A stretch of DNA of 64,000 nucleotides from a virus (lineage: Duplodnaviria > Caudoviricetes): positions 8,249 through 72,248 of IMG/VR virus record IMGVR_UViG_2871105481_000001; one strand, given 5' to 3'. The number at the start of each line of letters is the position of its first letter. Within the stretch, counting starts at the first letter, position 1. A model generated the notes under the pieces. That model did not search any database. It was not told the DNA's origin and saw only the letters and a program-made list of their open reading frames with translations. A program made the position numbers and the translations under genes. This document shows positions 41,258-57,659 of the stretch, piece by piece.

Positions 41258-41713
41258 ATGAAACAACTAAAGATTGAAATTCCTGAAGGATTTAAAGTAG
41301 ATGAATTTAATCCAGAATCAGGTATTATTAAATTCAAACCTATACCACAGAATATTAAAGATATAATTAAAACACTAGATGATGTTTATAACTATCATGA
41401 TATAGATAAAGATGAATTTAACAGAAGGTTCAAATCATGTACTGAAGATGAAATTGCCTATAAACATCTAAAGTTAATAACTTCTGCTTTAAACGAAGGT
41501 TGGGAACCAGATTGGGGGAATGGACAATGGGATAAGTGGTTCAACTGGTTCAACATGCCATCAAAAAATGGCCGGTTCTCGTTCTGCGACTCCTTTAATC
41601 GGTACTCGTTTTCGCATTGCTCTGCCCGCCTTTGCTTTAAATCCAAAGACCTTGCTCAGTACGCTGCAAAGCAATTCTTAGAGGTGTATGAGAAATATAT
41701 GGTTATTAAGTAA
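41258..41713 (+). CDS. DGR target protein 1 (distal)
   Basis: Carries VR1; paralog of 55335-55820 and 55832-56203 (ALNEGWxPDW...GRFSF...RLC). Confidence 0.9.
   Translation: MKQLKIEIPEGFKVDEFNPESGIIKFKPIPQNIKDIIKTLDDVYNYHDIDKDEFNRRFKSCTEDEIAYKHLKLITSALNEGWEPDWGNGQWDKWFNWFNMPSKNGRFSFCDSFNRYSFSHCSARLCFKSKDLAQYAAKQFLEVYEKYMVIK
41569..41634 (+). repeat. DGR variable repeat VR1
   Basis: Ungapped to TR 56243-56308; 16 mismatches in 66 nt, all opposite TR adenines. Confidence 0.92.
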
Positions 41714-41725
41714 ACTCTTAGTTTT

Positions 41726-41950
41726 ATGAAGCATATATTATACATAGTAATTTGTTTAGCAGGTATAATTTCATTAATATTTTTTTTGGAATCAAAATCT
41801 AATAAAGTAAAAAGTGCAAAACTTCAATGTGAATTAGGAATGAATCTATACAAACTATAAATAACTAAATATAAAGGAAATTTTAAAAAGTCAGATTCAG
41901 CATATAATTCAGATATAGATAGAATACTAAATGATATTTATAAAAAATAA
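41726..41950 (+). pseudogene. Small N-terminally anchored protein with an internal TAA
   Basis: ATG 41726, in-frame TAA at 41858-41860; the frame stays open to a TAA at 41950 that abuts the next ATG. Confidence 0.5.
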
Positions 41951-42358
41951 ATGAATCCAATAGTAACATTTGACTTCGACAAGACTTTATCCAGAACTGA
42001 TGTTCAACAATATGCTAAACAACTTATTAAAAGAAATATAACTGTTTGGGTTGTTACTGCAAGATATGATGAACTACAAAAACATAGATGGGTCGCAAAT
42101 CCATGCAATGAAGATCTTTATAAAGTAATTGAAGAAGTTGGAATACCAAGACATAAAGTTAGATTCCAATGTATGACACCAAAGTATGATTACTTAAAAC
42201 ATACAAAAGTACTTTGGCACTTAGATGATAATGAAGATGAACTTTATAGTATTAAAATGAATAGTGACGTAAATCCGATTGATGTTAATTTTTCAACATG
42301 GAAAGAAGAGTGCGAAGCTTTATTGGAAAAACACATGAAACAAAATAAAAAATTATGA
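41951..42358 (+). CDS. HAD-superfamily phosphatase-like protein
   Basis: FDFDKTL (DxD motif I), VVTAR (motif II), HLDD (motif IV). Confidence 0.75.
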   Translation: MNPIVTFDFDKTLSRTDVQQYAKQLIKRNITVWVVTARYDELQKHRWVANPCNEDLYKVIEEVGIPRHKVRFQCMTPKYDYLKHTKVLWHLDDNEDELYSIKMNSDVNPIDVNFSTWKEECEALLEKHMKQNKKL

Positions 42359-42978
42359 CTTTTCTTGAACAATTAAAATATATAAAATCAATTCTTGAAA
42401 ATCCAGATCAAGAAAGTTTAAATATGTCATTAGCTGATACTCATCATACAAATATATTTTCATTAGTAATAAAAGGAAATAGTCTAGGTGAGTTAACTAG
42501 AGTTTTTATTTCTTCAAAAAAATTAAAACCATTTGAAGTTCAATTACATTCGCACAGGTATCCCATTAAATTAACTGTTATAAAAGGTAATATTAAACAT
42601 TTTATTGCTGAAGAAGCATTATCATATGATGAAAAAAGTATTCAATTATCACAGTTTGAATATAAAAGTCCATTAAATGGTGGGTCAGGATTAAAATATA
42701 TTAATGATTTTAATTTTAACATAAAAGAATACCCAATTCCTATTGGATCTATAATAAAAATGAGCCAAAATGATATTCATACTATGTCATGTTCAAAAGG
42801 GTCTATATGGATAGTAGAGGAACAAGGCTTCAAAACAGATAGCAGTATAGTTTTAGGAGTGCCATTTATTACTGAAGGACTTTATAATACCCCTAAGCAA
42901 TTTCAAATTAATGATAATTATCAACTACTAAAAAAAGAAGTAAATAATTTAATTAACAATTATGAAAAAGTAATTTAA
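42355..42978 (+). CDS. Hypothetical protein (possibly cupin-like)
   Basis: 207 aa with LHSHRY and DIHTMSC His motifs in a beta-rich sequence. Confidence 0.45.
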   Translation: MTFLEQLKYIKSILENPDQESLNMSLADTHHTNIFSLVIKGNSLGELTRVFISSKKLKPFEVQLHSHRYPIKLTVIKGNIKHFIAEEALSYDEKSIQLSQFEYKSPLNGGSGLKYINDFNFNIKEYPIPIGSIIKMSQNDIHTMSCSKGSIWIVEEQGFKTDSSIVLGVPFITEGLYNTPKQFQINDNYQLLKKEVNNLINNYEKVI

Positions 42979-42979
42979 T

Positions 42980-43375
42980 ATGAGAATAATTATAGCAGGA
43001 TCAAGGGATTTTAATGACTATGAATTTCTTAAAAATAAGTTGGATGAAATTGTAGCAACTAAAAATAATGTAGAGATAGTTTGTGGTATGGCAAAAGGCG
43101 CAGATTTATTAGGTAAACGATATGGAGAAGAAAGAAACTTTTGCGTTCACGAATATCCTGCCGAATGGAATAATATAGAAGATAAACATCCAGGAGAAAT
43201 TAAATCAAATCAAAATGGAAGATACTGGATAAGAGCCGGAATAGTTAGAAATGAAACTATGGCACAGAATGCAGATATGTTAGTAGCATTTATAGTTAAC
43301 AAATCTTCTGGAACTTCTAACATGATTGAATTAGCTAAAAAGTATAAGTTGAAAACAATTGTAATAGATATTTAA
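42980..43375 (+). CDS. SLOG/YspA-like (DUF2493-type) protein
   Basis: MRIIIAGSRDFNDY, IVCGMAKGAD, AGIVRN..M, SSGT.NMI. Confidence 0.8.
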   Translation: MRIIIAGSRDFNDYEFLKNKLDEIVATKNNVEIVCGMAKGADLLGKRYGEERNFCVHEYPAEWNNIEDKHPGEIKSNQNGRYWIRAGIVRNETMAQNADMLVAFIVNKSSGTSNMIELAKKYKLKTIVIDI

Positions 43376-43378
43376 GAT

Positions 43379-43822
43379 ATGAAAATATTAGCATTAGATA
43401 TTGCCACAACTTCGGGTTATTCATCATCATCAGGAGAATCAGGAACTTTTAATTGTTCTTTCAAAAAAGGAGAATCAGGATCTATTAGATTACTCCGTTT
43501 CAGAAATAAAGTGAATGAACTATTAGATTTAATAAAACCAGAAGTTGTTGCCTATGAAAGATCAGCAGGAAGAAATACACACTCAATAAAAACACAATCT
43601 GAAATGATAGGAGTATTAACTTTAATGTTGGAAGATAAAAATATACAATATGCATCCTACTCCCCTTCTGAGGTTAAGAAATTTTTTACAGGAAAAGGAA
43701 ATGCTTCAAAAGAATTAATGGTTGAAACTGCTAAAAAAAAATATCCTGAAATTGAGATATTAGATGATAACCACGCCGATTCATTAGCTATTTTAGAACT
43801 AGCTCAGTCTGATTTATTGTAG
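43379..43822 (+). CDS. RuvC-like Holliday junction resolvase
   Basis: ILALDIAT, VAYE, VKKFFTGKGNASKE, DDNHADSLAI catalytic acidic pattern. Confidence 0.85.
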   Translation: MKILALDIATTSGYSSSSGESGTFNCSFKKGESGSIRLLRFRNKVNELLDLIKPEVVAYERSAGRNTHSIKTQSEMIGVLTLMLEDKNIQYASYSPSEVKKFFTGKGNASKELMVETAKKKYPEIEILDDNHADSLAILELAQSDLL

Positions 43823-43878
43823 CTAACCATCAGTTGCGTTCACCAACCATATCTTAGTAAAACAAAAAAGCCCATGAT

Positions 43879-44232
43879 ATGGTAATTGAAAAAGGCATTA
43901 TTATTCCAGCCTTCTTATTAGAAGAAGAGTATGAACTAGATAATATCAATGAAGAAGATGATGAATTTGAAGATGATATTGAAAGGCTAGTTAAAAACTC
44001 ACTAAATGAAAAACCGGAAGAAAAAATTCCATTCTTCCAATCAGAATTAATCAATATTCTTTTCTACGATATTTCAAATATAACACCGGCTTCAGATAAA
44101 TTCTATGGTGATAATTGCAGCATTATTTTATCAGGAGGAAAAGAATACTTCACAAACTTACCAATAGAAAGTATTCAAAATAAAATATATAACCTAAAAA
44201 GAGAAGAAAATCTTTTATACATATCTAATTAA
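43879..44232 (+). CDS. Hypothetical protein with acidic N-terminus
   Basis: ORF track; co-oriented in the operon. Confidence 0.5.
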   Translation: MVIEKGIIIPAFLLEEEYELDNINEEDDEFEDDIERLVKNSLNEKPEEKIPFFQSELINILFYDISNITPASDKFYGDNCSIILSGGKEYFTNLPIESIQNKIYNLKREENLLYISN

Positions 44233-44233
44233 G

Positions 44234-44443
44234 ATGACAGATAAAAAAGCGAAAAAACTGGGATTCACTCATAAAGGTAGAATGTACGGTGTACCAGTTT
44301 ATTTTTTCAATAATGGAAATTATCACATACATTCTAAAAACTTTTTTTGGAGAGTTTATTTAGATATGCTAATATTTTTAGATATAAAAGTATTCAAAAT
44401 AAATTATTCATTTGAGATTGATTATGTACATGAATTAGATTAA
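44234..44443 (+). CDS. Hypothetical protein
   Basis: 69 aa, tightly packed; GFTHKGRMYGVPVY. Confidence 0.5.
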   Translation: MTDKKAKKLGFTHKGRMYGVPVYFFNNGNYHIHSKNFFWRVYLDMLIFLDIKVFKINYSFEIDYVHELD

Positions 44444-44470
44444 TAATTACCATTTACAATATAAAACCAC

Positions 44471-44965
44471 ATGAAAATTTTCTTAATAAATACAGATCTT
44501 GAACATGAAACATTAAGAGACTTTATAAACTTCTATAACTCTACTGATGAATCTGAATATGTACAAATAATTATTAAATCCGGAGGTGGTTATTGTTATG
44601 TTGCTGATGAAATACTTGATATAATCAATAGTGATCCTGAAAGATTCACTCTAATAGCTACCAGATGGATTTATTCTTCCGCATTCGATTTATTCATGAA
44701 GGCAAAATGTAAAAGAATATTAAAGCCTAATACAGTCGGAATGATACATGAAGCATTACATGACATAACTTTTTCATTGAACGGTAGATCACACCCGGAA
44801 ACTAAAGTCTTACAAGAAACATATAAATCAAATCTTAAAGAATACATGGATTATCTAACTAACTTTCTAAAATTAAGTAAGCAAGAAATAAAAGACTATA
44901 ATAATCAAAAAGATGTTTACTTCAATTACACCAGACTTTTAGAAATACTAAACAACACAATCTAA
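44471..44965 (+). CDS. ClpP/crotonase-like serine protease
   Basis: IKSGGG oxyanion loop, YSSAF nucleophile elbow, MIHE His motif. Confidence 0.65.
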   Translation: MKIFLINTDLEHETLRDFINFYNSTDESEYVQIIIKSGGGYCYVADEILDIINSDPERFTLIATRWIYSSAFDLFMKAKCKRILKPNTVGMIHEALHDITFSLNGRSHPETKVLQETYKSNLKEYMDYLTNFLKLSKQEIKDYNNQKDVYFNYTRLLEILNNTI

Positions 44966-44969
44966 TAAA

Positions 44970-45359
44970 ATGAAACACCTCCTATCAATCCCAAAAGAAT
45001 TCAAACAAATGCATATCGATAAATTCAAACAATTCCTAGATGAAGGTTATGAAATTATCGAAGAAACACAAGTGAATGATTTTAAATGTTATGTGTTTGA
45101 AAAGAAATTTGAATCTGTTGTTGACCAACTTAAAAATGATATGATGTCAAAACGAATTGAAGAAGTTAACAAAGTTTATCAAGATGCGTTTACTGAAGGA
45201 ATTAATTATAGGACTATATTCCAAACTACACCAAGTATTTCAACTAAAAATTATCATGTTTTAACAGATGAAGAATTAGGCCAGAGTAATGCTTGTAAAA
45301 TAAAATTAAGTGAAATAATGAGCAAGTTAATAAATGATAGAAAAGAAAATGGAAGATAA
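44970..45359 (+). CDS. Hypothetical protein
   Basis: 129-aa ORF in the operon. Confidence 0.5.
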   Translation: MKHLLSIPKEFKQMHIDKFKQFLDEGYEIIEETQVNDFKCYVFEKKFESVVDQLKNDMMSKRIEEVNKVYQDAFTEGINYRTIFQTTPSISTKNYHVLTDEELGQSNACKIKLSEIMSKLINDRKENGR

Positions 45360-45759
45360 ATTCACTTTACCTGAATTTGATTCACCAAAGAATTATCCAG
45401 AAGATTATGTTGATGGCCATAATCAATATGTATGTAAGTGCTATAAATGCAAAGAACATTTCTACGGATATAAGCGTAGAATCATCTGTAAAGAATGTTT
45501 AAATACTGAAGATAAAACATTAGATAATTTTGATTTTCTTCATAACAAAGTTGCTGATATTGTAAATAATAACAATACTGGTAATAATGAATTAATAGAA
45601 CTTCTTAAATCTTATGACAATCAGTTCAGTGACAGGGGTACATTAAGAACATTACTTATGAGTATAAAACCTATACTTAAAGATAATGAAGAGTTAAAAT
45701 ATTACTATAATAAGTTAGCTGAAAGACTAAGAGAAGGAAGTAACAGTAAGAAAATTTAA
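45349..45759 (+). CDS. Hypothetical protein with CxxC..CxxC
   Basis: NQYVCKCYKCKEHFYGYKRRIICKEC. Confidence 0.5.
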   Translation: MEDKFTLPEFDSPKNYPEDYVDGHNQYVCKCYKCKEHFYGYKRRIICKECLNTEDKTLDNFDFLHNKVADIVNNNNTGNNELIELLKSYDNQFSDRGTLRTLLMSIKPILKDNEELKYYYNKLAERLREGSNSKKI

Positions 45760-45891
45760 ATAAAAAAATATAATATGAATCAAGACATTATTATTGGAAG
45801 TGAGTATGATGGTATTTAATGACCTTATCTTATCACAATTTAATCAATTCCCACATCTTTTCGGTGTGGGTTTATTTAACAAATAATAATT

Positions 45892-46221
45892 ATGAATATA
45901 TTTAAAAAATACAGAATTAAACTTTGGGCAATTTCCATTTGGTGCTATATCTGGTATAAACCTCACTATGTACTTCATGTAGAAAAATATGAAGATGATG
46001 ACGAAGAATATGAGGAACATAGATACTACGTTAAAAAACGAGTCATTCCGTGGATTTTACTTTTCCCTATAGTAGCTATACCACTATTTATTTATGGAGG
46101 TTTGAAATCTCTATTTGATTATTTTGCCTTTATATTCACGTGGTATCAGAACTGGATAACAGTACAAAAAAAAGAAATTGATTTTAAAACCAAATTAGAT
46201 ATTGCAAGAAGACTATTGTAA
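45892..46221 (+). CDS. Hypothetical membrane protein
   Basis: 109 aa with a central hydrophobic segment. Confidence 0.5.
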   Translation: MNIFKKYRIKLWAISIWCYIWYKPHYVLHVEKYEDDDEEYEEHRYYVKKRVIPWILLFPIVAIPLFIYGGLKSLFDYFAFIFTWYQNWITVQKKEIDFKTKLDIARRLL

Positions 46222-46314
46222 TAATATAAATCCTATATTTGCATTGAAATGATACTCCATTTCTAACAACTGTTTCCATAGTAATGACATTTGGTTCTAT
46301 GGTTAACAAAAATT

Positions 46315-46344
46315 AAAGTTCTTGAATTGCAATTCAAGAACTTT
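46315..46344. terminator. Perfect 30-bp palindrome followed by a T run
   Basis: AAAGTTCTTGAATTG|CAATTCAAGAACTTT then TTTT. Confidence 0.7.
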
Positions 46345-46493
46345 TTTTATTTAACACAAAAACAATCGTAAAATCTACTCAATTTAATTTCACAAACACT
46401 TATACCAAAAATAATTTTAAATACAAATATCGCACATTAAAATACGTAATTAGGTATATTTGCTATATTAATTATTATTACAATGTTATTAAA

Positions 46494-46691
46494 TTGAATT
46501 TATACCCAAAAACTAAACCCTATTACTCAGGATACTTTCTTATAATTATTAAAAAAGAAGATTATAAATTTAACTATGTAGCTCAATATAATCACAGAAC
46601 AAATAAATGGTTTAGATTTAACCCATTTAATCATCAAGAAAATATAATTGAAATTGATATGGAAATAAAACAATGGAGCGAAATTGAATAG
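46494..46691 (+). CDS. Small hypothetical protein
   Basis: 65 aa with TTG start; plausible but weak. Confidence 0.35.
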   Translation: MNLYPKTKPYYSGYFLIIIKKEDYKFNYVAQYNHRTNKWFRFNPFNHQENIIEIDMEIKQWSEIE

Positions 46692-47803
46692 AACTAACAA
46701 TAGGTTGTGAATTTATAAATGAAAATTAGAAAGTGATATAGTTGAATGTCCAGTATATTTTGAGAGGGGGCGAAAAAAAATTGCAATAAAACTCAAAAAA
46801 AAATGACCTGGCACTCTAGAAATAGGCAAATGATTTTCTGATTTCAAACTCGATTTTATATAGATCATAATACTATTGGATAAGTATTTCAATTAAACAT
46901 ATTGCCATACACAAGGATATCTAAAATCATTTATAATAAAAGGTTGGTATACGTAGGTAGTAAGGGGTATATAAAAATATTTTCTATGGTAAATATTAGT
47001 TGCGTCTTCTTTATGGAGACGGCACACTAAATATAGTTACAAAGGGTATATAAATTATTAATACTGTAATACAGTACCCACAAAAACAAAGACACCATTC
47101 AATAAATACCAATAAATACACTAACTATTGATAATAAAAACTTATTTTATTTATTGATTTAATAATACAAGAGTAATATATTATAAGGTGTAAATATATT
47201 CTTCAGCTTATTCTTGTATATTAATCTAATTCACTCCTAATACATAATGTAAATAATTCAATAAAATAATATATATATTAATGAATACATAGTGAAAACC
47301 ATATAAAATACTAAAAAGGCAGTCTCCACCCTATTACACTTGTTGCATTATTCGTAAAAGTGAATGAAAAAGTATCAGTTCAAAAACTAGAATAAATACT
47401 ATATTTTTAGAATATTCACTATTTTAAATAGAATATAAGGTTAAATAAAGGTTATATATATAATATACTGAATAAACAGCTTTAATTCAGGTTAAAATGA
47501 TTGGGTAATATAGTAAGATGAAAATTAAGTATTATTGTCTGTATGGTGATAAAATAAGCTTGCAAGTTTATAATAGTCTTACATAATACTAATCTTTATT
47601 CATTGCTTTAATAGTTGTTTATAGTGAATATCTGTTTTACTGTTAGATATATCTATTTAGCTTCTTATATACTACTTATGCCCTTCGGGCTTCTTAACTC
47701 TTCCTCCTTATTATCTCTTACTCTTTATGTAGTTATTCTCTTAGTGTGGTGTTCTTCTGTTAGTAAACGCAAAAGATTATAATTTACTATCTTTAAAACA
47801 AAA

Positions 47804-48058
47804 ATGACTTTATATTTATGTATTAAAGATTTGGATACTTTGATAATAGATTGGAACCTTATAAGAATACCACAAATAGGAGAACAAATTTATATTAAAG
47901 ACTTTCTTTCAGATCCTGATAAAGATAAAATCCTTCAAGATATCATGACTGTAAAATATATACAATGGATAAAGTTAAATGATATTATTTATCCTGTATT
48001 ATTCTTAGAATATGGCGAAAGCAATTTACCCGAAATAGATATGCCGAGTATTAACTAA
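47804..48058 (+). CDS. Hypothetical protein
   Basis: 84 aa, A-rich start context, followed by a hairpin at about 48062-48090. Confidence 0.5.
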   Translation: MTLYLCIKDLDTLIIDWNLIRIPQIGEQIYIKDFLSDPDKDKILQDIMTVKYIQWIKLNDIIYPVLFLEYGESNLPEIDMPSIN

Positions 48059-48325
48059 ATAAAAAATCCCTAACATTTAAGCTGGGGATTTCTTTTGGTA
48101 TTTACTTACAACTTGTAATATCATGGCCGAAAACCAAAAAGCTGTAATAATTAATTAGGCTGCAACTAGGAGTTAATTCTTCTGGTTGTTTTGTTGTATA
48201 CAAATATAGTGTATTTAGTATTATAGTTTTGTCTGCTGGTGTTGGCTTTTATTTGTAAACGCGAATTATTCTATTTGGCACATCATTTGAAAAATAATTA
48301 TATATTTACTACATAAATCAAAATC

Positions 48326-48733
48326 ATGAAATATTATAAACATTTACTCATTCTTTCATTTGTATTTTTTGCGTTTACTGCCTTATTTTCTTGCAGTAGT
48401 AATAGAGATGATAATAATATAAACAATAGATCTGTTGACATAGTTACATATACTGAGTTACCAGATAAACCCTATTTACTTATAGGGAAAGATTTTTCTA
48501 TTGAAACAAAAGGAAAATGGGAGAAGAAGGGCATTCATTTAGGCAATAATGTAGACCCATTTAACTTACAGGTCCGTTATCCTAATGGTAATTTAAATGC
48601 TGATTATGTTATTATATTAGAGATGTACGAAAATGGTAAACAGATTTATAGAATTGGCGGAAAAGGAAAAATAGATCTAGAATTAAAAGAAGGTAATATT
48701 AGTCTTAAGTCTAATTATATTTTACCAAAATAG
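48326..48733 (+). CDS. Lipoprotein
   Basis: Signal peptide with lipobox LFS-C followed by SSNRDD. Confidence 0.65.
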   Translation: MKYYKHLLILSFVFFAFTALFSCSSNRDDNNINNRSVDIVTYTELPDKPYLLIGKDFSIETKGKWEKKGIHLGNNVDPFNLQVRYPNGNLNADYVIILEMYENGKQIYRIGGKGKIDLELKEGNISLKSNYILPK

Positions 48734-48750
48734 ATTAACACTATTAAACC

Positions 48751-49089
48751 CTATTCTTTGTCTTCCTTGATATCATCTATCTGATTTTTAATGTTCTCAT
48801 TTTCGTATTCTAAATCATCTATTCTATCAGAATTGTCATCATATTTATAATTAGGTATGTTAGGTTGAGTATTATTATCCTCTAAATCTAAAATTTTATT
48901 TTCCAACTCTTCAACACGATAATTTAGATCATCCACTTGATCATTTAGTTGAATAGTATTTTTTATTAGCTTCTTAATAATATCTTCATCTCTAATATGT
49001 TTCTTTGGAAATATTAATTTTGTTGATCCATAATAAGCAAATGAAATATAAGCTATAAAAACTAATGATATAAAAATACTCTTTTTCAT
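48751..49089 (-). CDS. Membrane-anchored coiled-coil protein
   Basis: N-terminal TM helix, heptad repeats. Confidence 0.55.
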   Translation of the reverse strand: MKKSIFISLVFIAYISFAYYGSTKLIFPKKHIRDEDIIKKLIKNTIQLNDQVDDLNYRVEELENKILDLEDNNTQPNIPNYKYDDNSDRIDDLEYENENIKNQIDDIKEDKE

Positions 49090-49286
49090 CTTCTTGGAGC
49101 TCTTCTAGTATAAGGTTGAACATAAGTTCCATTTTTTCTATAATACCCTTTAACATGAACTGTTCCAGAGCTATATCCACTAGAATACCCAGAACTAGGA
49201 TAACTTGAATTATAATATACATCATTATTATAGCTGCCACATGAAGCAAAAACAATAAATACGATAAAAAGTAAAAGTTTTTTCAT
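49086..49286 (-). CDS. Small lipoprotein with HVKGYYRKNGTYV motif
   Basis: FAS-C lipobox, Ser/Gly/Tyr linker, basic C-terminal beta-hairpin motif. Start uncertain (49292 in track). Confidence 0.6.
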   Translation of the reverse strand: MKKLLLFIVFIVFASCGSYNNDVYYNSSYPSSGYSSGYSSGTVHVKGYYRKNGTYVQPYTRRAPRR

Positions 49287-49291
49287 AAACA

Positions 49292-49846
49292 TTATTTTAC
49301 ATAATCTTTAGCAAGATAATTTAAAAATTCCCTAAACTCTTTAAATGTGCTTTGTTTTTTAAACATTTCTGTTATCCTTTTTTCAGAATACAAAGTATTA
49401 TTTACTAAAAAATTCATTAAATCGTCAAAAGCTACAAACTTGTAATTTTCTTTTGTAATATATATTTTGTTTTCCTCTATATCATCTAATAATAATTTAT
49501 AATAACGTGAAAGATTTTCTTCATATTCATTCATAGTATTTTCAATTTTTCCACACCATATTATACGTTTACTTTCTTCTTCAATCCTTGGAATCATTTC
49601 TATATTACTCTCAATAGCTTTAAGTTCAATTTTATTATTATCATTTATGAAATTCTTCCTATAGATCCACTTATTAGATAAATTAATAGTATTAATAGAA
49701 TTGACTTTTGCTTCAATTTTTCTAGTTTCCTGCTTAAGGATATTTAATCTTGAATATAAAGTTTCCATTTTTTTTGTCCCCTCCAATGTTTGACTATATA
49801 ATATTGAATTAAACAATAAAAAAACTACCTTAATAAGCTTGATCAT
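49292..49846 (-). CDS. Exported/hypothetical protein
   Basis: Signal-like N-terminus (LLFNSILYSQ). Confidence 0.5.
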   Translation of the reverse strand: MIKLIKVVFLLFNSILYSQTLEGTKKMETLYSRLNILKQETRKIEAKVNSINTINLSNKWIYRKNFINDNNKIELKAIESNIEMIPRIEEESKRIIWCGKIENTMNEYEENLSRYYKLLLDDIEENKIYITKENYKFVAFDDLMNFLVNNTLYSEKRITEMFKKQSTFKEFREFLNYLAKDYVK

Positions 49847-49923
49847 AAAATTTATTTTAGCTAAAATTAACTTTAAACTCTTTATGCAGCTTAAAATTTA
49901 ACAAACTTTAACGCTTCCATGTA

Positions 49924-49953
49924 TTGTGCAAATAAAAAACATGCGTAAATTTG
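49924..49953 (+). promoter_or_regulatory. Bacteroidota promoter of the antirepressor operon
   Basis: TTG 49924-49926, 19-nt spacer, TAAATTTG 49946-49953. Confidence 0.7.
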
Positions 49954-49956
49954 AAT

Positions 49957-50145
49957 TGTTCAAATCAGTGCATTAAGTGTTTATACTTATTGCAATAAAT
50001 TTAAAGTATAAAAATATTAAGCCCTGGAGGTGTCGTATGGTCGTAATACTATACAATCTTTTGCGTAAGCACTGATTTGAACAGCACCCACCCAGGGCGT
50101 TTTATGTTTAAATAATTTTAAATTTAAATATTATGTTCAAATCAG
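49957..50145 (+). promoter_or_regulatory. Structured leader with complementary boxes A/B'/C
   Basis: TGTTCAAATCAGTGC (49957-49971) is the exact reverse complement of 50069-50083; a 12-nt copy lies at 50134-50145 over the ATG; GCCCTGG/CCAGGGC stem 50021-50098. Confidence 0.7.
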
Positions 50146-50499
50146 ATTCAAGCACTAACAGTGCGCAACAAAAAAATGTAGAAATTGATGACGGTTCAAT
50201 CAGTCATATTTTTGAAGATCCTACACCTATAAAATCAGGATATTCAGATAACTACTTGAAAAAAACACGCAACAATAGGCGTAATTAAAGACCTTTTACT
50301 AATCACCCGATTAGAAGAACTCCTAAAACAGACAATTGAATTCAACTGCTTTAACACCCTTTTCTTTATTATTGGTGTTACTCCATTTTCTGAAGAAGCG
50401 AATAAAATTGTAGATGTATTCCTGAAATACAAATACGATAAAGTTCAAGACTGTTTAGCCGAATATGTGTACACTAAAATTAGTGATGCACTAGTATAG
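50133..50499 (+). pseudogene. First ORF of the antirepressor operon, split at an A7 run
   Basis: ATG 50133 frame stops at 50288. Removing one A from 50259-50265 gives a continuous 121-aa ORF to TAG 50499. Confidence 0.5.
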
Positions 50500-50529
50500 T
50501 TATAGTATAACGTTATAAAATTTACAATC

Positions 50530-51297
50530 ATGTTAGAACAATTCAACTATAACGGAAATAACGTGTCTTTTCTTGTAGAAAACGACATTGTGATGGTAAA
50601 CGCAACGCAAATGGCTAAACCGTTCAGTAAACAACCTTATGAATATTTACGCTTACCTACTACAAATGAGTTAATTAGAGCCATTACGGGAAAATCCCGT
50701 ATTGCTGAAAATCAAGTAGTTAAGACAATACGCGGAGGATTAAATCCGGGAACCTGGTTAAATGAAGATCTTGCGATTGATTTTGCACAATGGTTGTCTG
50801 TTGATTTCAAACTTTGGGTATCTGACCGGATCAAAGAATTAATGAAATACGGATTTACAGCAGACAATAAAACATTAGACGCTTTAGTTTCAAATCCAGA
50901 TCTTTTAATTTCATTGGCAACACAACTTAAACGGGAGCGAGAAGAGAAAGACGTTTTGAAGCGCGAGAATGAAAGAATGAAACCCCGTGATAAATTCGTG
51001 AACATTGTTTTTGATTCCAGTAGTTTACTTACTTTATCACAAGCTGCAAAAGCATTACAACTACCCTATGGACGTAATAAGATGTGCCAGAAGTTAAGAG
51101 AAAAAGGTGTATTTATGAAACGAGGTACAGAGCCTAAACAGATATATGTTAATAATGGTTATTTTGTAGTAAAAGAAGCTTCGTTTGTAAACGCAACTAA
51201 TACCTATTTACGACCCCAGACTTTTGTATCACAAAAAGGATTAGGATTTATTGCTCGTACATTAGGAGTAATTGAAGTCCCTAAACTATTACAATAA
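50530..51297 (+). CDS. Phage antirepressor (KilA-N + KilAC/ANT domain)
   Basis: MVNATQMAKPF, GTW..EDLAIDFAQWLS (KilA-N); NPDLLISLA..LK.ER; AAKAL...GRNK....LREKG...TFVSQKGL (KilAC). Confidence 0.9.
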   Translation: MLEQFNYNGNNVSFLVENDIVMVNATQMAKPFSKQPYEYLRLPTTNELIRAITGKSRIAENQVVKTIRGGLNPGTWLNEDLAIDFAQWLSVDFKLWVSDRIKELMKYGFTADNKTLDALVSNPDLLISLATQLKREREEKDVLKRENERMKPRDKFVNIVFDSSSLLTLSQAAKALQLPYGRNKMCQKLREKGVFMKRGTEPKQIYVNNGYFVVKEASFVNATNTYLRPQTFVSQKGLGFIARTLGVIEVPKLLQ

Positions 51298-51319
51298 GCT
51301 TATTACATAACAACTACTA

Positions 51320-51348
51320 AGAGTTTCCAAAACGGAGACTCTTTTTTT
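51320..51348 (+). terminator. Intrinsic terminator
   Basis: AAGAGTTTCC-aaaac-GGAGACTCTT followed by a T run. Confidence 0.7.
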
Positions 51349-51464
51349 TGCTTTAAAAGTAAATTAAATTACTTTTTATGACAATATACAAACGTAAAAT
51401 GATAAACTTTTATGATTGATTTTCTGATACTTACATAATTTATATACTTTTTACGCATCTTTTA

Positions 51465-51495
51465 TTTGCGTATTATGTAACTTTTTGTAAATTTG
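51465..51495 (+). promoter_or_regulatory. Bacteroidota promoter heading the long rightward early operon that contains the DGR
   Basis: TTTG 51465-51468, 19-nt spacer, TAAATTTG 51488-51495. Confidence 0.75.
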
Positions 51496-51603
51496 TAACA
51501 GATAAGAGAAGACGAAACAAACACAACTTTAAATATTAAGATTTGAACCAACCTGAGCAAGTTGTTAAAAGGCTTTCTTTAAGATAACTAAATAATAAAA
51601 GCT

Positions 51604-51840
51604 ATGAATTATTTCGGTCAAACATTTAATGAAAAAGCGAGTATAGAAATTAAGGCACAATGGTATGTAGATAACTATGGAACTAATCCAAAATTTAAAG
51701 AATCTGTTTCTACTGGTTTAGAAGATATTTCTAAAAGGATTGAGTTAGTAAATGAAAATAAAATCTGGTTAAGTAATGAATTAATACAGAGTTTAAATGA
51801 AGCTAAAAGAATACATGAAATAATCTTAACAATTATATAA
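51604..51840 (+). CDS. Hypothetical protein
   Basis: 78 aa, first ORF after the promoter. Confidence 0.55.
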   Translation: MNYFGQTFNEKASIEIKAQWYVDNYGTNPKFKESVSTGLEDISKRIELVNENKIWLSNELIQSLNEAKRIHEIILTII

Positions 51841-51841
51841 A

Positions 51842-52078
51842 ATGAAAACAACTACACTAACAGAAGAACAAAAGGCAGATATAGTAACGATTACTTTTTT
51901 ATCTATTGGAGTAATACTATTAATATCCTTCGTTGCTTTTATACTGCCTAATATAACATTAGATCAACAGGTTGAAGCTTATAAACGCAACATGCAGCAA
52001 AAAGAAATAAAAGAAGCTCATGAATTTCATGAAAAAATGATGTTGGAGGAAAATAAAAAATACATTTCAAATCATTGA
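51842..52078 (+). CDS. Small single-TM protein
   Basis: 78 aa with one hydrophobic helix. Confidence 0.55.
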   Translation: MKTTTLTEEQKADIVTITFLSIGVILLISFVAFILPNITLDQQVEAYKRNMQQKEIKEAHEFHEKMMLEENKKYISNH

Positions 52079-52177
52079 TTTATTAACTCGACTAAGCGAG
52101 TATAAAAAGGTTTTAAGCTTAGAGCGTTGATAGTTATAAAAACCTATCAGGTAACAACAACTAAAAAATATTACAAA

Positions 52178-52837
52178 ATGAAAACAACATTTTCTTTCAC
52201 AGACAAAAACAAAAACCTTATAACTATTAAAGCAGAAATAACATTTAGGAATAGTTATGCTGAATTTACAATTTAAGGTGATAAAGGTAATAGTTGCGGA
52301 CAAATTGATTTTTCCCCAAAGAATGAACAACAACAAGAGCTTAAAAATATTTGGGATAAGTACCACCTACAAAAAATTGATGATCAAGAAAAATTTTGGA
52401 ACAAGTTTTTAAAATTAACAAAAGAAATAGAAGCTTTTGAATTAGAAGAAAAAGAAAGAAAAGTAACTGAAGAAGATATAGAATTGTTTGAAGATTTCGA
52501 CGAACCTGAAAAAGCATTAGTAATAGCATTGATGCTTGATTTATCAATTAACGAAATTGAAGACATTTCAAATACATATGATAATTGCTGGGAAGTACAA
52601 GGTATATCATATTTATTTGGGACTGATGATGAAATGGATGAAGAATGGGATACTGATTTAGATAATTATATAGATGATTGCTTAGAAATACCTAAAGACT
52701 TAGAAAGATATTTTGACAGGGAGTTGTGGAAATCGGACGCTAGAACAGACGGCAGACCGCATTCTCTTGGTAGATACGACGGAAGAGAAATAGAGTTTAA
52801 ATATGAGAGTACATGGTACTATGCATATAGACAATAA
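52178..52837 (+). pseudogene. Acidic hypothetical protein interrupted by one in-frame TAA
   Basis: ATG 52178 has a strong A-rich context; TAA at 52274-52276; the same frame continues into the track ORF 52484-52837. Confidence 0.65.
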
Positions 52838-52923
52838 TTAATAGTAAACCTTCCTTTGAACGTGTAGGCGTTATTTGGAGCAATACCAACAAAGGAACAA
52901 ACAAAACAACTAAAATTTACAAA

Positions 52924-53382
52924 ATGAGAACTAACAAATACACTTACTTAAAAGTAATTCAACAAAATTACAGTGGCAAATGGAAGGATATAGAAGAAGT
53001 GGAAGCTAATAGTATTTATGTACCTAAATGCGGAGATAGTATTTTTAAAACTCTTGTTTCTGGTTATAAATTATTGGGAGTAAGCACTAAAACTATTAAC
53101 AGAAGGATTATAAACGCAAAACCTTCATTAAGACAAAATTTTAAAGACTGTGATGATTTTGCAAACTATGTTTTTGACAGTGTTTTAGATTATGGCGAAA
53201 TCATAACTAATGAATTTAATCAATTAACCGGATTAAACATAAAAGTCGGTTCAGACATTAAAACAATTGAATCATTGCCATGCCTGGGTATTAATTACAT
53301 TGAATTCGGATCTTTAAAGTCAATGCTTTATGATTTATATTACTTCCTAATCAAAGAAAATAAAATAAACACACTTAACTAA
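52924..53382 (+). CDS. Hypothetical protein
   Basis: 152 aa; YLKVIQQNYSGKWKDI. Confidence 0.55.
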   Translation: MRTNKYTYLKVIQQNYSGKWKDIEEVEANSIYVPKCGDSIFKTLVSGYKLLGVSTKTINRRIINAKPSLRQNFKDCDDFANYVFDSVLDYGEIITNEFNQLTGLNIKVGSDIKTIESLPCLGINYIEFGSLKSMLYDLYYFLIKENKINTLN

Positions 53383-53394
53383 AAATCACAAATC

Positions 53395-53586
53395 ATGTTT
53401 GAAGAAAAAATTATAGCATGCGCAACGTATGTTACAGGGATTGCATTGCTTTTTAACCCAGCTCCTGAGCTTAAATATATAGGTGGAATTATTACGGTTA
53501 CTTTAATGGTAGTAGGTATTCCAGTAGTATATCAACTCGCTAAAGCCTTTGTTAGTAAACGCAAAAGATTGAAAAATGCAAAATAA
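53395..53586 (+). CDS. Small two-TM protein
   Basis: 63 aa, two hydrophobic segments, basic tail. Confidence 0.5.
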   Translation: MFEEKIIACATYVTGIALLFNPAPELKYIGGIITVTLMVVGIPVVYQLAKAFVSKRKRLKNAK

Positions 53587-54290
53587 CATTTCACTAATAG
53601 CATATTTCAATGGAGACATTGACAAAATGATAAAAATATTAATTCACTTAAAATAAAGTATTATGAAATAAAAGATTGACAACGAAAAAATATTTAAAGA
53701 ATTTAATCCTTTACCTACTTTAAGTCCAAAAGGACATTGGACTATTAAATCCGGAAAAATAGGTACACCAGTAGCAATGTTACCAATACCGCAAGGAGGT
53801 ATTAATGGAAAAGAAAGAATAGAACTTTATACAGATTTACTTGTACAAAGCAAAGTAATAGCAAAAACACTAATAGAAGTAAATGATTTTCTGTATAACT
53901 ACAAATATAAAAGTATAGAAGATGCTTATAAATTACAAAGTAAGGTTTTAACATTATTAAAAAAGCTAACTACAGAATGAAAACTATTTTACTCCTGTCA
54001 ATTTTTGCTGTCTTAGCGATAATATCAATTTTTATAGTTAAGCCTTACAATTTTATAATAAGAATGTTAAATAAATAATATCAATATGATCACCTTATTA
54101 AAAATATTCAGAAAGAAAATACAGGAAGAAATACAACCCTGTGGAGTAATTCAAATCGGAAAATATCCGGAAAATTACAATGATCTAGGCACAAAATTTA
54201 TGTCTCATCAAAGAAACATTCGTGCAAGGGCATAGAGAAAAAATATAACTATTAAAAAAACAAAGCTCCCCGAAGGAAGCTTATTACAAA

Positions 54291-55328
54291 ATGAAAACAA
54301 CCATTTATGGAAGTCTTCAAAACAACTATAACAAAGATATGAATTATTTAGAATTAAAACAAGACACTACCCTTTCTCATAATTCGGAAATGCAATATTT
54401 CAATTCATTTTTCCAGGATCTTTTAAAAGGGTTACAGAGTGGTAAATACATTACGGACAAGGGTACTAAATATTCTCTTACCACAATAAGACATTATAAA
54501 AATGCTTACGACTGGTTTGTTTTTTGGGAAGCTCACATTGGTATTCAATTACAAATGAATGAGGTAATATACAATACTGTTGAAATGTTTAAAACGTTTC
54601 TTAGCCATTATCACCTAACATTAAATAGTGTATCAGTTATTATCTCTAAAATTAAATCTGTCCTAAACTTTGCTTTTAAGTCGGGTAAGCATTTTTGGAA
54701 TGGAACAGGAATAAAGATTGTAAAGGAAAAAAATCCAAAAACGTATTTAACAATTGAAGAATTAAAGCAAATGCGTTCATGTAAATCTTTAACTGCTGCT
54801 GAAGAAATGGTTTTAGACAATTTTACAATTCAGTTTTATATTGGTCAAAGGTATGAAACAACACAAAGATTCTTAAAGCAACCTTTTGCGTTTACAAGAC
54901 AACATGGAGAATTTTCATATATAGAAATTGAAGCATATAAAACTGGAACCGTTTCATATATCCCATTAGGAGAGATAGTTAAGGGTATTATACAGAAATA
55001 TAATGGTTTAGTGCCTGTTTATTCTAGGACTTACATTAATCGGATAATTAAAGTGGTTGCGTTTAAAGCAGGATTAATTCAATTAATTGCAACTCGTGAA
55101 ACGCGTAATCAAAAAGTTGTTAGAGAGTTTATTCCAAAATATTCTCTTATATCTACACACACTGCAAGAAGATCCTTAGTATCAAATCTTAAACAATTAA
55201 ATTTTTCAAATCAATCAATAATGGGAATTACATCTCATGGTACAGAAGTACAGTTAAATGACTATAACAGGTCACAAGTAGAAAAAATAAAATCAATATT
55301 AGGTCACGAATTTTTCCTGAAAATATAA
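54291..55328 (+). CDS. Tyrosine recombinase with SAM-like N-terminal domain (second integrase)
   Basis: Catalytic set R (IGQRY), K (YKTG), HxxR (HTARR), H (TSHG), Y (LNDY). Confidence 0.85.
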   Translation: MKTTIYGSLQNNYNKDMNYLELKQDTTLSHNSEMQYFNSFFQDLLKGLQSGKYITDKGTKYSLTTIRHYKNAYDWFVFWEAHIGIQLQMNEVIYNTVEMFKTFLSHYHLTLNSVSVIISKIKSVLNFAFKSGKHFWNGTGIKIVKEKNPKTYLTIEELKQMRSCKSLTAAEEMVLDNFTIQFYIGQRYETTQRFLKQPFAFTRQHGEFSYIEIEAYKTGTVSYIPLGEIVKGIIQKYNGLVPVYSRTYINRIIKVVAFKAGLIQLIATRETRNQKVVREFIPKYSLISTHTARRSLVSNLKQLNFSNQSIMGITSHGTEVQLNDYNRSQVEKIKSILGHEFFLKI

Positions 55329-55334
55329 AATCTC

Positions 55335-55820
55335 ATGAAGAATTTAGAAATCACTCAAGAAGCAGCAGTAAAAGCATACTCTGAAGCTTCAAAAAATGGA
55401 AAACTATTACTAGAAAATCTTTTTGGAAAAAATGTATTTCTTGTAGATATTAAAGAAAGAATTAAATCTATTGAAGATGCAATTAATGAACTTGGAGAAA
55501 ATGATGATGAAGTAATTGTATTAAGAGCCTTAGAAGTAGCTGGTATAAGTAATCATATTTTATATACACAATGGTTAGTAGTTATTACCAAAGCTCTAAA
55601 CGAAGGTTGGGAACCAGATTGGGGGAATGGACAATGGGATAAGTGGTTCAACTGGTTCAATATGCCATCAAAAAATGGCCGGTTCTCGTTCTACTGCTCC
55701 AATTATCAGTACTCGGTTTCGGTTTGCGCTTCCCGCCTTTGCTTTAAATCAAAAGACCTTGCTCAGTATGCTGCTAAGCAATTCATAAACACTTATGAAA
55801 AATCTTATACTAATCAATAA
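55335..55820 (+). CDS. DGR target protein 2
   Basis: Contains VR2; C-terminal 188 nt near-identical to target 1 outside the VR. Confidence 0.9.
   Translation: MKNLEITQEAAVKAYSEASKNGKLLLENLFGKNVFLVDIKERIKSIEDAINELGENDDEVIVLRALEVAGISNHILYTQWLVVITKALNEGWEPDWGNGQWDKWFNWFNMPSKNGRFSFYCSNYQYSVSVCASRLCFKSKDLAQYAAKQFINTYEKSYTNQ
55676..55741 (+). repeat. DGR variable repeat VR2
   Basis: Ungapped to TR 56243-56308; 15 mismatches in 66 nt, all at TR adenines. Confidence 0.92.
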
Positions 55821-55831
55821 AACTAATTTAA

Positions 55832-56203
55832 ATGAATATAACAGATAAAGTAAAAAGTTTTGAGGATGCTTGTCAATTATTAGGAATAAAACCTGATGTT
55901 CCAAAAGTATCATTATTGCCAGAAAAACATCAAAAAGCAATAGTAGCACATTATAAATTGATAATTATTACTGAAGCATTAAATGAAGGATGGACACCTG
56001 ATTGGAGTAATTGGAATGAAAGAAAATATTATCCTTGGTTTGAAATGAGTGATTCTTCTGGCCGGTTCTCGTTCGACGGCTCCGATCATCGGTGCTCGAC
56101 TTCGACTTGCGCTTCCCGCCTTTGTCTAAAAACATGGGAATTAGCAAATTACATAGGAGAATCGTTCATTGATTTATATAAAGATTATTTCATAATAGAT
56201 TAA
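55832..56203 (+). CDS. DGR target protein 3 (minimal core domain)
   Basis: Contains VR3; VKSFEDAC..LG...ALNEGWTPDW..RLC. Confidence 0.9.
   Translation: MNITDKVKSFEDACQLLGIKPDVPKVSLLPEKHQKAIVAHYKLIIITEALNEGWTPDWSNWNERKYYPWFEMSDSSGRFSFDGSDHRCSTSTCASRLCLKTWELANYIGESFIDLYKDYFIID
56052..56125 (+). repeat. DGR variable repeat VR3
   Basis: Ungapped to TR 56236-56309; 16 mismatches in 74 nt, all at TR adenines. Confidence 0.93.
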
Positions 56204-56235
56204 ATTCTTAAGGTTATACAGTTTATGTTGCTCCT

Positions 56236-56309
56236 ATTCTTCTAGCCAGTTCTCGTTCAACAACTCCAATAATCAGAACTCGAATTCGAATTGCACTACC
56301 CACCTATGT
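56236..56309 (+). ncRNA. DGR template repeat (TR)
   Basis: Non-coding, between target 3 and RT; 7 AAC/AAT triplets in frame with the VR codons. Confidence 0.93.
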
Positions 56310-56413
56310 TTTTAATATAAAAACTGTAAACCTTACCTCTTGGTAAAAAATAACTCACTTTCATAAAGGCGTTGGTAAGTTTTACTGAAAACGACTTTTC
56401 TAAAGCAAAGATT

Positions 56414-57376
56414 ATGAAAAGAATAAACAATTTATTTGAAAAAATAATTTGCATTGACAATCTAAAACAAGCAGATATAAATGCTCAAAAAGGAAAAAGC
56501 AAACAATATGGAGTAAAACTACACAATAAAAATAATGAGTTAAATATTATTGAGTTATATAACACACTTAAATATAAACAATACAAAACCTCACAATATG
56601 ACGTATTCAAAATAACCGAACCTAAAGAAAGGGAAATATACAGACTTCCATATTTTCCTGATAGAATAATGCATCATGCTATTATGAATATATTAGAACC
56701 AATATTTGTTTCAACTTTTACTAGTGATACCTATAGTTGTATAAAGAAAAGAGGTATACATAAAGCTTCATATAATTTAAGAAAAGCTCTTAAACATAAA
56801 ACTGAAACTTTATTTTGTTTAAAGCTTGATATTAAGAAGTTCTACCCAAATATTAACCATGATATTTTAAAAACCTTACTAACAAAAAAGTTTAAAGATA
56901 AAGACCTATTATGGCTTCTATATGAGATAATTGATAGTGCTCCAGGTTTACCAATTGGTAATTATTTAAGCCAATATCTAGCGAACTTTTACCTAACATA
57001 TTTTGATCATTGGGTAAAAGAAGAATTAAAAGTTAAGTACTACTTCAGATATGCAGATGATATAGTAATACTTAATAGTTCAAAAGAAAACCTTCACATA
57101 ATATTAAATCAAATTAAATACTATTTAAACACTAAACTAAAATTACAAGTAAAAGAAGATTGGCAAATATTTCCGGTAGAAAAAAGAGGTATTGACTTCG
57201 TTGGATATGTTCATTATCATAGTCATGTTAAACTTAGGAAATCAATTAAGAAGAAATTTGCAAAAATATTAAAAAGAAGTCCTAATAAAGCTTCAATTGC
57301 ATCTTACTCTGGATGGACAAAACACTGTAACTCTCAAAATCTTATGAAAAAACTTTTAAATAATGTTCCACTTTAG
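56414..57376 (+). CDS. DGR reverse transcriptase
   Basis: PKEREI..LPYFPDRIMHHA, LKLDIKKFYPNI, GLPIGNYLSQ, YFRYADD, GIDFVGY; about 320 aa with no maturase/endonuclease tail. ATG 56414. Confidence 0.95.
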   Translation: MKRINNLFEKIICIDNLKQADINAQKGKSKQYGVKLHNKNNELNIIELYNTLKYKQYKTSQYDVFKITEPKEREIYRLPYFPDRIMHHAIMNILEPIFVSTFTSDTYSCIKKRGIHKASYNLRKALKHKTETLFCLKLDIKKFYPNINHDILKTLLTKKFKDKDLLWLLYEIIDSAPGLPIGNYLSQYLANFYLTYFDHWVKEELKVKYYFRYADDIVILNSSKENLHIILNQIKYYLNTKLKLQVKEDWQIFPVEKRGIDFVGYVHYHSHVKLRKSIKKKFAKILKRSPNKASIASYSGWTKHCNSQNLMKKLLNNVPL

Positions 57377-57659
57377 TGATTTTAACATCAAACCTAAAGA
57401 AAACACATTTACAGGGAAAAAAATAGATATAGATGATATTTTAAATATTGAAATTATCATTAACAAATATCAAATAAAAGATTCAATAAAAAAATCAAAT
57501 TCAAAATATCTCACATTACAAATTGAGATAAATAAAACTCATAGAATTGTCTTCACTGGATCTAAAAACCTAATTGATTTAATAAGTCAAGTACCAGAAG
57601 ACAAATTTCCATTTTCTACGACAATAAAAAAGAATGATCGTAGACTAGAATTCACTTAA
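57363..57659 (+). CDS. Small unknown protein overlapping the RT stop (candidate DGR accessory factor)
   Basis: 98 aa, 14-nt overlap with RT; FTGKKIDIDDILN...LQI...VFTGS..LI...FPFSTTI, beta-rich. Confidence 0.7.
   Translation: MFHFSDFNIKPKENTFTGKKIDIDDILNIEIIINKYQIKDSIKKSNSKYLTLQIEINKTHRIVFTGSKNLIDLISQVPEDKFPFSTTIKKNDRRLEFT

Follow-up and report, generated by a model that had tools for sequence, protein, structure and literature searches.

The prototype of the diversity-generating retroelements (DGRs) is that of the Bordetella phage BPP-1, ordered mtd-avd-TR-brt, in which a 134-nt template repeat (TR) is copied with adenine-specific mutagenesis into the variable repeat (VR) of one target, a tail-fibre C-type lectin, by a reverse transcriptase (RT). 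In the cryo-EM work on this system the DGR RNA was described to contain the cPRT Stop, a duplex formed between the TR flanks with a stem-loop and then adenosines behind it, and similar predicted elements were reported for 207 other DGRs (bioRxiv 10.1101/2023.10.23.563531). According to the survey of Wu et al. 2018 (PMC5758913) about 15% of DGRs possess two or more targets, 29% have no accessory gene and some lineages lack Avd, so that this protein is not defining for a DGR; in Treponema denticola, Legionella, Stenotrophomonas and others a single TR and a single RT act on several paralogous targets, of which some are non-adjacent. The targets of phage DGRs were mainly tail proteins with a residue of "unknown" in Roux et al. 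2021 study. The present analysis concerns a 64,000-nt stretch of viral DNA (positions 8,249 to 72,248 of the IMG/VR record IMGVR_UViG_2871105481_000001), which is further called the window and whose first letter is position 1. It very probably contains a bona fide and recently active DGR located in the early/accessory region of an Elizabethkingia prophage and composed of a core cassette, T2-T3-TR-RT-orf98, and a remote target gene, T1, recruited by a recombined 188-bp block. Thus the locus resembles the multi-target and remote-target systems, with three targets in place of the single one of BPP-1 and with a TR of only 77 nt.

The ungapped computational alignment of the TR with the VRs gave 16 mismatches for VR1 (TR 56243-56308 against 41569-41634), 15 for VR2 (the same TR segment against 55676-55741) and 16 for VR3 (TR 56236-56309 against 56052-56125), exactly the counts reported in an earlier reading of these letters, hereafter the original prediction. 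That prediction had also placed every mismatch on a TR adenine, and 47 of 47 are indeed found there (24 A>G, 19 A>T, and 4 A>C); as adenine makes up about 32% of the TR, the chance of this is by our arithmetic about 0.32^47 = 1e-23. The first non-adenine difference between TR and VR is T>C at 56309, for VR1 and VR2, just beyond the segment aligned for these two. When the adenines of the TR were masked (A replaced by N), the pattern fitted exactly four sites over 61 nt without any mismatch, in the 64-kb window and in the whole 72,248-bp provirus record alike, and a match was obtained in 0 of 100 shuffled sequences; these four copies are the TR and VR1-3, therefore there are three VRs and no more. 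The 21 adenines of the core TR fall on the first, second, and third codon positions in the proportion 10:10:1, and the core contains 7 AAY codons (AAC or AAT) in a frame that all three VRs share relative to the TR, which confirms the predicted agreement of these triplets with the VR codons. The TR is not covered by any open reading frame (ORF), is followed by an in-frame stop, lies on the strand of the RT and ends 102 nt ahead of the RT start codon. About 25 constant residues come after each VR, and the homology to the TR extends 7-8 nt further in the 5' direction for VR3 than for the other two; both gene-internal VRs and a 5' homology boundary that varies between targets are shared with the multi-target DGRs of Wu et al.

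The window's own three VRs differ from each other at 15 of the 21 adenine sites, and at 20 of 21 at least one of them departs from the TR. The estimate of about 17 variable adenines in the original prediction is therefore too high for these three copies and becomes correct when 11 VR copies, including those of related prophages, are pooled (17 of 21). The remaining four adenines are replaced by the same other base in all 11 copies (AGC>GGC, CAG>CGG, CAC>CGC, and CTA>CTT). Two TR positions near the 3' end, 56302 and 56306, are occupied by G and T in every one of the 11 VRs, and in 13 of the 16 clade loci whose retrieved sequence reached the TR 3' end all VRs have G, G, and T in place of the last three TR adenines. 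On sequence grounds these fixed 3'-end differences are read as the type known for the initiation of mutagenic homing (IMH/IMH*) sites, which would give the process its direction. One of the fixed changes, CTA>CTT, is silent, so selection at the protein level cannot explain the fixed 3' site. The 17 free sites correspond to 4^17, about 1.7e10, DNA variants per target and, by our count from a per-codon table, to about 1e10 protein variants, the free positions lying mostly in the 7 AAY codons. Adenine-specific transfer from TR to VR, in-frame AAY codons and IMH-like fixed 3' differences are all features of the BPP-1 system.

Four sister prophages were retrieved through exact target proteins, and in three of them the TR is identical to that of the window over 77/77 nt. 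In L085-L088, all with this 77/77-nt TR, VR2 and VR3 together differ from the window at 21-26 of 43 TR-adenine sites versus 12-41 of 815 other T2 and T3 sites (p = 1e-14 to 3e-29), and in the more diverged L089 at 20 of 43 versus 115 of 815 (p = 9e-7); expressed as rates, 47-60% of the TR-adenine sites versus 1.5-5% of the other sites are changed, the latter rate being that of the closest three prophages. In L085 the flanks of T3 are identical to the window over 220/220 and 76/76 nt, and once the eight always-fixed sites are left out of the count, the two prophages disagree by our arithmetic at about 74% of the free sites, where 75% is expected for two independently randomised copies; given a published mutagenesis density near 50% for each event, this would fit several rounds. 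At the non-adenine positions of the VRs the differences number 0-1 of 97 in the closest sisters and 5 of 97 in L089, whose TR itself has changed: it bears two non-adenine substitutions, and the same two changes are found in both L089 VRs, which is direct evidence of copying from TR to VR. A related 75-kb provirus (L092/L095) also has all three targets; its TR core is identical over 61 nt and lies about 13 kb from T1, and the window VR1 differs from the L092 VR1 at 12 of 21 TR-adenine sites versus 28 of 435 sites elsewhere in T1 (p = 7e-9), so that the remote T1 was rewritten in its own right. Judged from these sequence comparisons, the DGR has acted on all three genes, the remote T1 included, as the original prediction had proposed; the VRs of related genomes are not monomorphic, and their variation is concentrated at TR-adenine sites instead of being equally frequent at other bases.

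The RT was compared with protein structures and with 80 RT-containing loci that were retrieved from species genomes by means of the window RT. Its best solved relative is 8ub7_A (E = 1.5e-42 over the full length), while group II intron and retron RTs follow at about 1e-17 (5e-18 for the group II introns); 8ub7 is taken to be the Bordetella phage bRT because its numbering of D215/D216, I181, G182, and Q187 agrees with that of the bRT residues in the BPP-1 cryo-EM preprint (bioRxiv 10.1101/2023.10.23.563531). I181-G182-x-x-x-S186-Q187, Y213-A214-D215-D216, and D139 were invariant in an alignment of 40 relatives, and both the IGxxxSQ and the YADD motifs are intact in the window RT, which thus shares the active-site and signature residues of its BPP-1 counterpart, and the predicted assignment to a BPP-1-like DGR enzyme was borne out. 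Most of the loci with an RT at least 58% identical have 2-4 VRs per TR, at spacings of about 190 and 580 nt as in the window; compared with the survey of Wu et al., this RT clade differs in having 2-4 targets as a rule, and also in its target family and accessory gene. In a side observation, the RT frame of the locus L016:6300-7256 is interrupted by a TGA two codons short of the match end.

For the RNA the TR with its flanks was aligned from 35 loci and analysed by RNAalifold and pair counts. The 12-bp stem that encloses the TR is paired in 97.6% of cells, and 10 of its 12 pairs show compensatory changes; in the whole consensus structure of 24 pairs, compensatory changes were found in 21, and 96.3% of cells are paired versus 40-47% when the partners are slid. 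The covariation score was 0.673 versus 0.10-0.15, and 0 of 500 shuffles scored as high. The minimum free energy of the whole spacer gave a z-score of -0.61, which is not significant, so the support for the RNA structure comes from covariation and not from folding energy. As in the BPP-1 cPRT Stop, the long-range duplex of the TR flanks is followed by a stem-loop and adenosines.

The spacer between this stem and the RT matches the Rfam model RT-17 in full (positions 1-95) and contains a two-part hairpin supported by covariation (56366-56373 with 56390-56397 and 56378-56379 with 56385-56386). RT-17 also stands directly before the RT in the relatives L027, L085, L090, and L091. In Weinberg et al. 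2017 study (PMC5737381) RT-1 to RT-19 appear as orphan motifs located close to RT genes, a link to a DGR being made for RT-10 only; RT-10 is the motif of BPP-1, where the present locus has RT-17. Compared with the published RT-17 the unpaired 5' end is here one strand of the 12-bp stem, its partner lying about 100 nt upstream across the TR. The same spacer (56304-56412, + strand) gave sub-threshold Rfam matches to RT-14 (24 bits) and RT-18 (21 bits), and several of the orphan "RT" motifs may be related DGR spacers.

By analogy with BPP-1 the biochemical steps can be proposed as follows. The TR would be transcribed together with its flanks; the 12-bp stem, the short hairpin, and the A-run would loop the TR out in the manner of a cPRT Stop, and the RT-17 spacer RNA would hold the RT. 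During cDNA synthesis random bases would be placed opposite the TR adenines, 17 of these positions being free to vary and four constant, and the cDNA would then replace the homologous stretch in any of the three target genes. The direction would be set by the invariant differences of the 3' end, where the VRs read ...CGCCTTTG and the TR reads ...CACCTATG. The coordinates of all elements are collected in Table 1.

Table 1. Elements of the retroelement and its three targets, in window coordinates.
Feature	Coordinates	Strand	Remarks
T1, remote target, 151 aa	41258..41713	+	phrog_11581, no Pfam match; among small early-region ORFs
VR1	41569..41638	+	in T1; 16 mismatches, all at TR adenines
VR-bearing block of T1 and T2, 188 bp	41490..41677 = 55597..55784	+	mark of recombination or duplication
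T2, target, 161 aa	55335..55820	+	phrog_11581; homologues in Elizabethkingia, Chryseobacterium, Soonwooa
VR2	55676..55745	+	in T2; 15 mismatches, all at TR adenines
T3, target, 123 aa, minimal core of the family	55832..56203	+	phrog_11581, E = 1.8e-27
VR3	56052..56127	+	in T3; 16 mismatches, all at TR adenines
Long-range stem, 5' strand, 12 bp	56212..56224	+	A56216 bulged; encloses TR
TR	56236..56312	+	non-coding; fixed differences from every VR at 56302, 56306
Long-range stem, 3' strand	56321..56332	+	pairs with 56212-56224
Structured spacer, Rfam RF03020 RT-17 RNA	56329..56412	+	41.4 bits against gathering score 40.4, E = 8e-6
Stem-loop of 4 bp (56334-56337 with 56342-56345) and unpaired A-run (56346-56350)	56334..56350	+	4/4 pairs covary; A-run invariant
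DGR reverse transcriptase, 320 aa	56414..57376	+	RVT_1; phrog_1423, E = 3.5e-118
orf98, 98 aa, basic protein of predicted OB fold, candidate accessory	57363..57659	+	overlaps RT stop by 14 nt; pI 9.4; phrog_19665

The most evident deviation from BPP-1 is in the accessory gene: where the latter has a helical Avd encoded upstream of the TR, the present cassette has no avd and possesses a gene for a predicted oligonucleotide/oligosaccharide-binding (OB) fold protein, orf98, downstream of the RT. In the absence of avd, HRDC, and MSL genes the cassette is similar to the Avd-less DGRs of Wu et al. 2018 (Architecture A, Lineage 3, CH1 class). Searches of Pfam and NCBIfam with the ORFs neighbouring the RT, orf98 included, gave no match. 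The AlphaFold2 (AF2) model of orf98 is a small beta-barrel with pLDDT of 92, and among the best 50 rows of the VIA-align comparison almost all are OB domains (Z 5-6.3, rmsd 2.2-3.0 A over 63-70 residues), which are moderate scores; the list of neighbours is consistent and includes single-stranded DNA-binding protein (SSB), PriB, Rim1, PRD1 P12, and RuvBL DII, while the Foldseek E-values were 0.01 or higher and the Atlas match to the phi29 SSB family was weak. Across several Bacteroidota families, 47 of the 80 loci have an orf98 homologue directly 3' of the RT, in most cases overlapping its stop or adjoining it, and these homologues co-occur with targets of the T family. On the basis of this linkage and of the predicted fold, orf98 as a gene translationally coupled to the RT may supply a nucleic-acid-binding accessory function in place of Avd. 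Wu et al. 2018 (PMC5758913) make no mention of an OB-fold accessory gene 3' of the RT, and the full-text literature search revealed no paper describing one for a DGR.

The first alternative to be weighed is that orf98 is an ordinary SSB of phage replication which stands beside the RT by chance, the DGR working without an accessory protein. The 29% of surveyed DGRs devoid of an accessory gene make such a DGR conceivable, and the OB domains matched with modest Z values are those of generic SSB and PriB. Against this, the RT-orf98 linkage is seen in three unrelated phage backbones with differing replication modules (the window's phage, a Mu-like phage, and a primase-encoding prophage), and orf98 was lost along with the RT in L086/L087. 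Replicative SSBs typically have an acidic C-terminal tail, for which, reasoning from the length, 98 aa leave no room. Chance adjacency is thus not very likely, and the coupled accessory role is preferred.

It may further be asked whether the element is a fossil, that is, whether the three genes were diversified in the past, the DGR is now silent or inactive here and the VRs are frozen alleles. Decay does occur among the relatives. In L086 and L087 (an E. bruuniana prophage and a metagenome copy, about 11080-11490) T2, T3, and TR are kept, the RT is cut to a 136-aa remnant, orf98 is gone, and the VRs are identical to each other, which looks like a DGR frozen by the loss of its RT; in L020:10001-10951 the RT has an in-frame TAA at codon 154, and a single VR pair was detected there. 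The published activity of Bacteroides DGRs also ranges from high to very low (bioRxiv 10.1101/2024.11.15.621889). In the window, by contrast, the RT is of full length with all catalytic and DGR-signature residues, and the TR, its stem, RT-17, and orf98 are all intact. Moreover, prophages which are 1.5% apart at the other T2 and T3 positions are already 60% apart at the adenine sites, and therefore the last rounds of mutagenesis must have been very recent relative to the divergence of the strains. According to these facts a fossil element is unlikely, and recent activity of the DGR remains the preferred reading.

The remote position of T1, 14.1 kb upstream of T2, allows one more alternative, in which only T2 and T3 are serviced and T1 is a passive paralogue with a VR-like block that was copied from T2 and never rewritten. 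Outside the TR-adenine sites the 188-bp block of T1 is a near-exact copy of that of T2 (163 of 167 identical, compared with 9 of 21 at TR-adenine sites; Fisher p = 1.5e-10), and the T1/T2 differences taken alone could have arisen in T2 only. The excess of adenine-site differences between VR1 and the L092 VR1 speaks against it and indicates that VR1 changed independently, the IMH-like 3' end and downstream flank of T1 are identical to those of T2, and remote targets are documented for other DGRs (PMC5758913), which together make a passive T1 highly improbable. Upstream of the block the gene halves of T1 and T2 share only about 38% identity and are thus unrelated as DNA sequences, and the block marks the recombination or duplication event by which T1 became a target. 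In L093:10001-10940 (IMGVR_UViG_2814123097_000002) the slot of T2, immediately upstream of T3 and TR, is filled by a gene with a T1-type N-terminus; evidently, as far as the sequences tell, N-terminal modules are shuffled onto a common VR-bearing C-terminal block, and this would explain the recruitment of T1. The same recombined block and N-terminal shuffling speak in favour of four repeats being mere paralogous segments homogenised by gene conversion with no DGR at all, an explanation already refuted by the base-specific asymmetry, as gene conversion cannot confine all 47 differences to adenines of a single non-coding copy and gives no account of a DGR-type RT and a conserved structured RNA beside it.

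The targets themselves belong to a single family, phrog_11581, of unknown function, and Pfam and NCBIfam searches of T1-T3 gave no match. Their pI values of 5.3-6.8 are mildly acidic to near-neutral, and no signal peptide was seen on reading the translated N-termini of the three proteins. A search with the T-family profile yielded 4,075 cluster representatives at E <= 0.001, and among the 150 members listed nearly all have 150-165 aa, with a few tandem doubles. This minority (P0121, P0125, P0134, P0137, and others) consists of proteins of 250-350 aa with two tandem T units, which could have arisen by gene fusion or by read-through from one target into its neighbour; a Pfam scan of the longer family members found no known domain, and the search for longer, fused target forms found none, which is weak evidence. 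In the AF2 model of the target (mean pLDDT 79.6) the protein is confidently helical outside the VR, and the VR segment has pLDDT of 43-50; a profile search of the target against PDB sequences gave nothing significant.

In Wu et al. 2018 (PMC5758913) the CH1 "accessory" proteins were characterized as acidic, 160-169 aa long, without motifs and present only in Avd-less DGRs. T2 (161 aa, pI 5.5) resembles this class, and CH1 may be an unrecognised member of the T family, both statements being a comparison by description only. The targets of BPP-1 and of the present locus are of different kinds, with the tail-fibre lectin of the former opposed to early-region proteins of 123-161 aa with an internal VR. 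The DGRs known from Bacteroidota phages and mobile elements, such as those of Hankyphage, of the crAss-like phage LMMB and of Bacteroides prophages and integrative and conjugative elements, come from the same host phylum as the window; they diversify tail-fibre, tail-collar, or pilus-tip proteins, and those characterised in Bacteroides encode Avd. The targets are small, lack a signal peptide and stand in a cassette that occurs in the phage early region and never in the tail module; for these reasons they are more likely early, cytoplasmic, diversified binders than tail receptor-binding proteins, and this is the least secure step of the whole argument.

Several observations weigh against a functional DGR aimed at all three genes or against its details, and they are gathered here. 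The BPP-1 enzyme needs Avd, of which a search with PF05635 in all six frames of the record gave no trace. In BPP-1 a hairpin or cruciform immediately 3' of the VR is also required; here VR1 and VR2 are followed by a bulged hairpin of 8 bp with a 4-nt loop, with fold energies not clearly better than those of shuffles, and VR3 has no equivalent downstream hairpin. No template:primer hairpin between the TR 3' end and the stem was consistently conserved in the alignment. For the target model neither Foldseek against the PDB (no significant match and no C-type lectin) nor the wide VIA-align search (best Z 3.9, not significant) offered a structural relative. The broken RTs of L086/L087 (truncated) and L020 (internal stop) indicate that the lineage can decay, and activity of the DGR in this genome today is something we infer. 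Set beside the adenine specificity, the copying from TR to VR and the covarying RNA, these points leave the reading of a genuine and recently active DGR very probable.

The homologues of the targets were found in Elizabethkingia anophelis, E. bruuniana, E. miricola, Chryseobacterium, Soonwooa, and Cloacibacterium, and genes for a terminase, portal protein and tail fibre are also present in the window, along with two tRNAs and, at the right end, an integrase; on this basis it is assigned to an integrated temperate phage of Weeksellaceae, an Elizabethkingia prophage. A crAss-like phage was considered because of a 3514-aa ORF and of the nearest DNA matches of the RT in the phage collection, which are crAss-like phages with 63-70% identity over the RT only and nothing outside it; this was dropped, as the target homologues and sister loci are integrated Elizabethkingia and Chryseobacterium prophages. 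Comparison of the loci revealed the cassette in the early/accessory region of three unrelated temperate phage backbones and never in the tail module. The first is the window's phage, in whose sister prophages ArdA, KilA-N/ANT, and Dam are encoded nearby; the second is a Chryseobacterium prophage with the cassette between repressor and primase, and the third is a Mu-like prophage with the cassette between transposition genes and late genes.

That one DGR has three targets, a remote one included, is a real but ordinary and well-documented phenomenon, as several and remote targets were published before (PMC5758913) and 2-4 targets are the rule in the RT clade. The combination of an absent Avd, an RT-coupled gene of predicted OB fold, the RT-17 spacer, and arrays of small early-region targets was not found described in the literature. 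It is possible, although we hold it only tentatively, that this combination defines a distinct and widespread DGR subclass of Bacteroidota temperate phages, in which the OB-fold orf98 replaces Avd, RT-17 serves as the RT-binding spacer and 2-4 small cytoplasmic early targets (from a family of more than 4,000 clusters) provide an intracellular binder repertoire for phage-host or phage-phage conflict, such as anti-defence or superinfection exclusion, and not for receptor recognition. The locus is of value as a case where sequence comparison alone reveals the TR-to-VR flow, a near-saturating turnover of adenine sites between almost identical prophages and the recruitment of a remote gene through a 188-bp block. 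Its clade lacks Avd and carries the gene of predicted OB fold, would give a function to the orphan Rfam motif RT-17 and draws its targets from a very large family of small proteins encoded in phage early regions; if these are intracellular binders, the role of DGRs in phages would extend beyond host-range switching. Elizabethkingia lysogens are culturable, and hence these proposals are accessible at the bench.

Some minor observations concern the surroundings of the cassette. A second integrase-like gene (54291-55328, + strand, 345 aa, Phage_int_SAM_5, phrog_1) ends 7 nt before T2 and is present beside the cassette only in Elizabethkingia prophages and not in the 80 other RT loci. No + strand terminator was found between 53800 and 58500, which covers 54291 to 58189, and the sigma-70 promoter scan was uninformative, the host being a member of Bacteroidota. 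The main prophage integrase is encoded at 62771-64000 (- strand), and the tRNA genes are tRNA-Trp(CCA) at 33867-33938 (- strand) and tRNA-Met(CAT) at 39314-39388 (+ strand). The 3514-aa ORF (15939-26483, - strand) belongs to the structural region; it had no PHROG match at E <= 0.001, and its neighbours match virion structural families.

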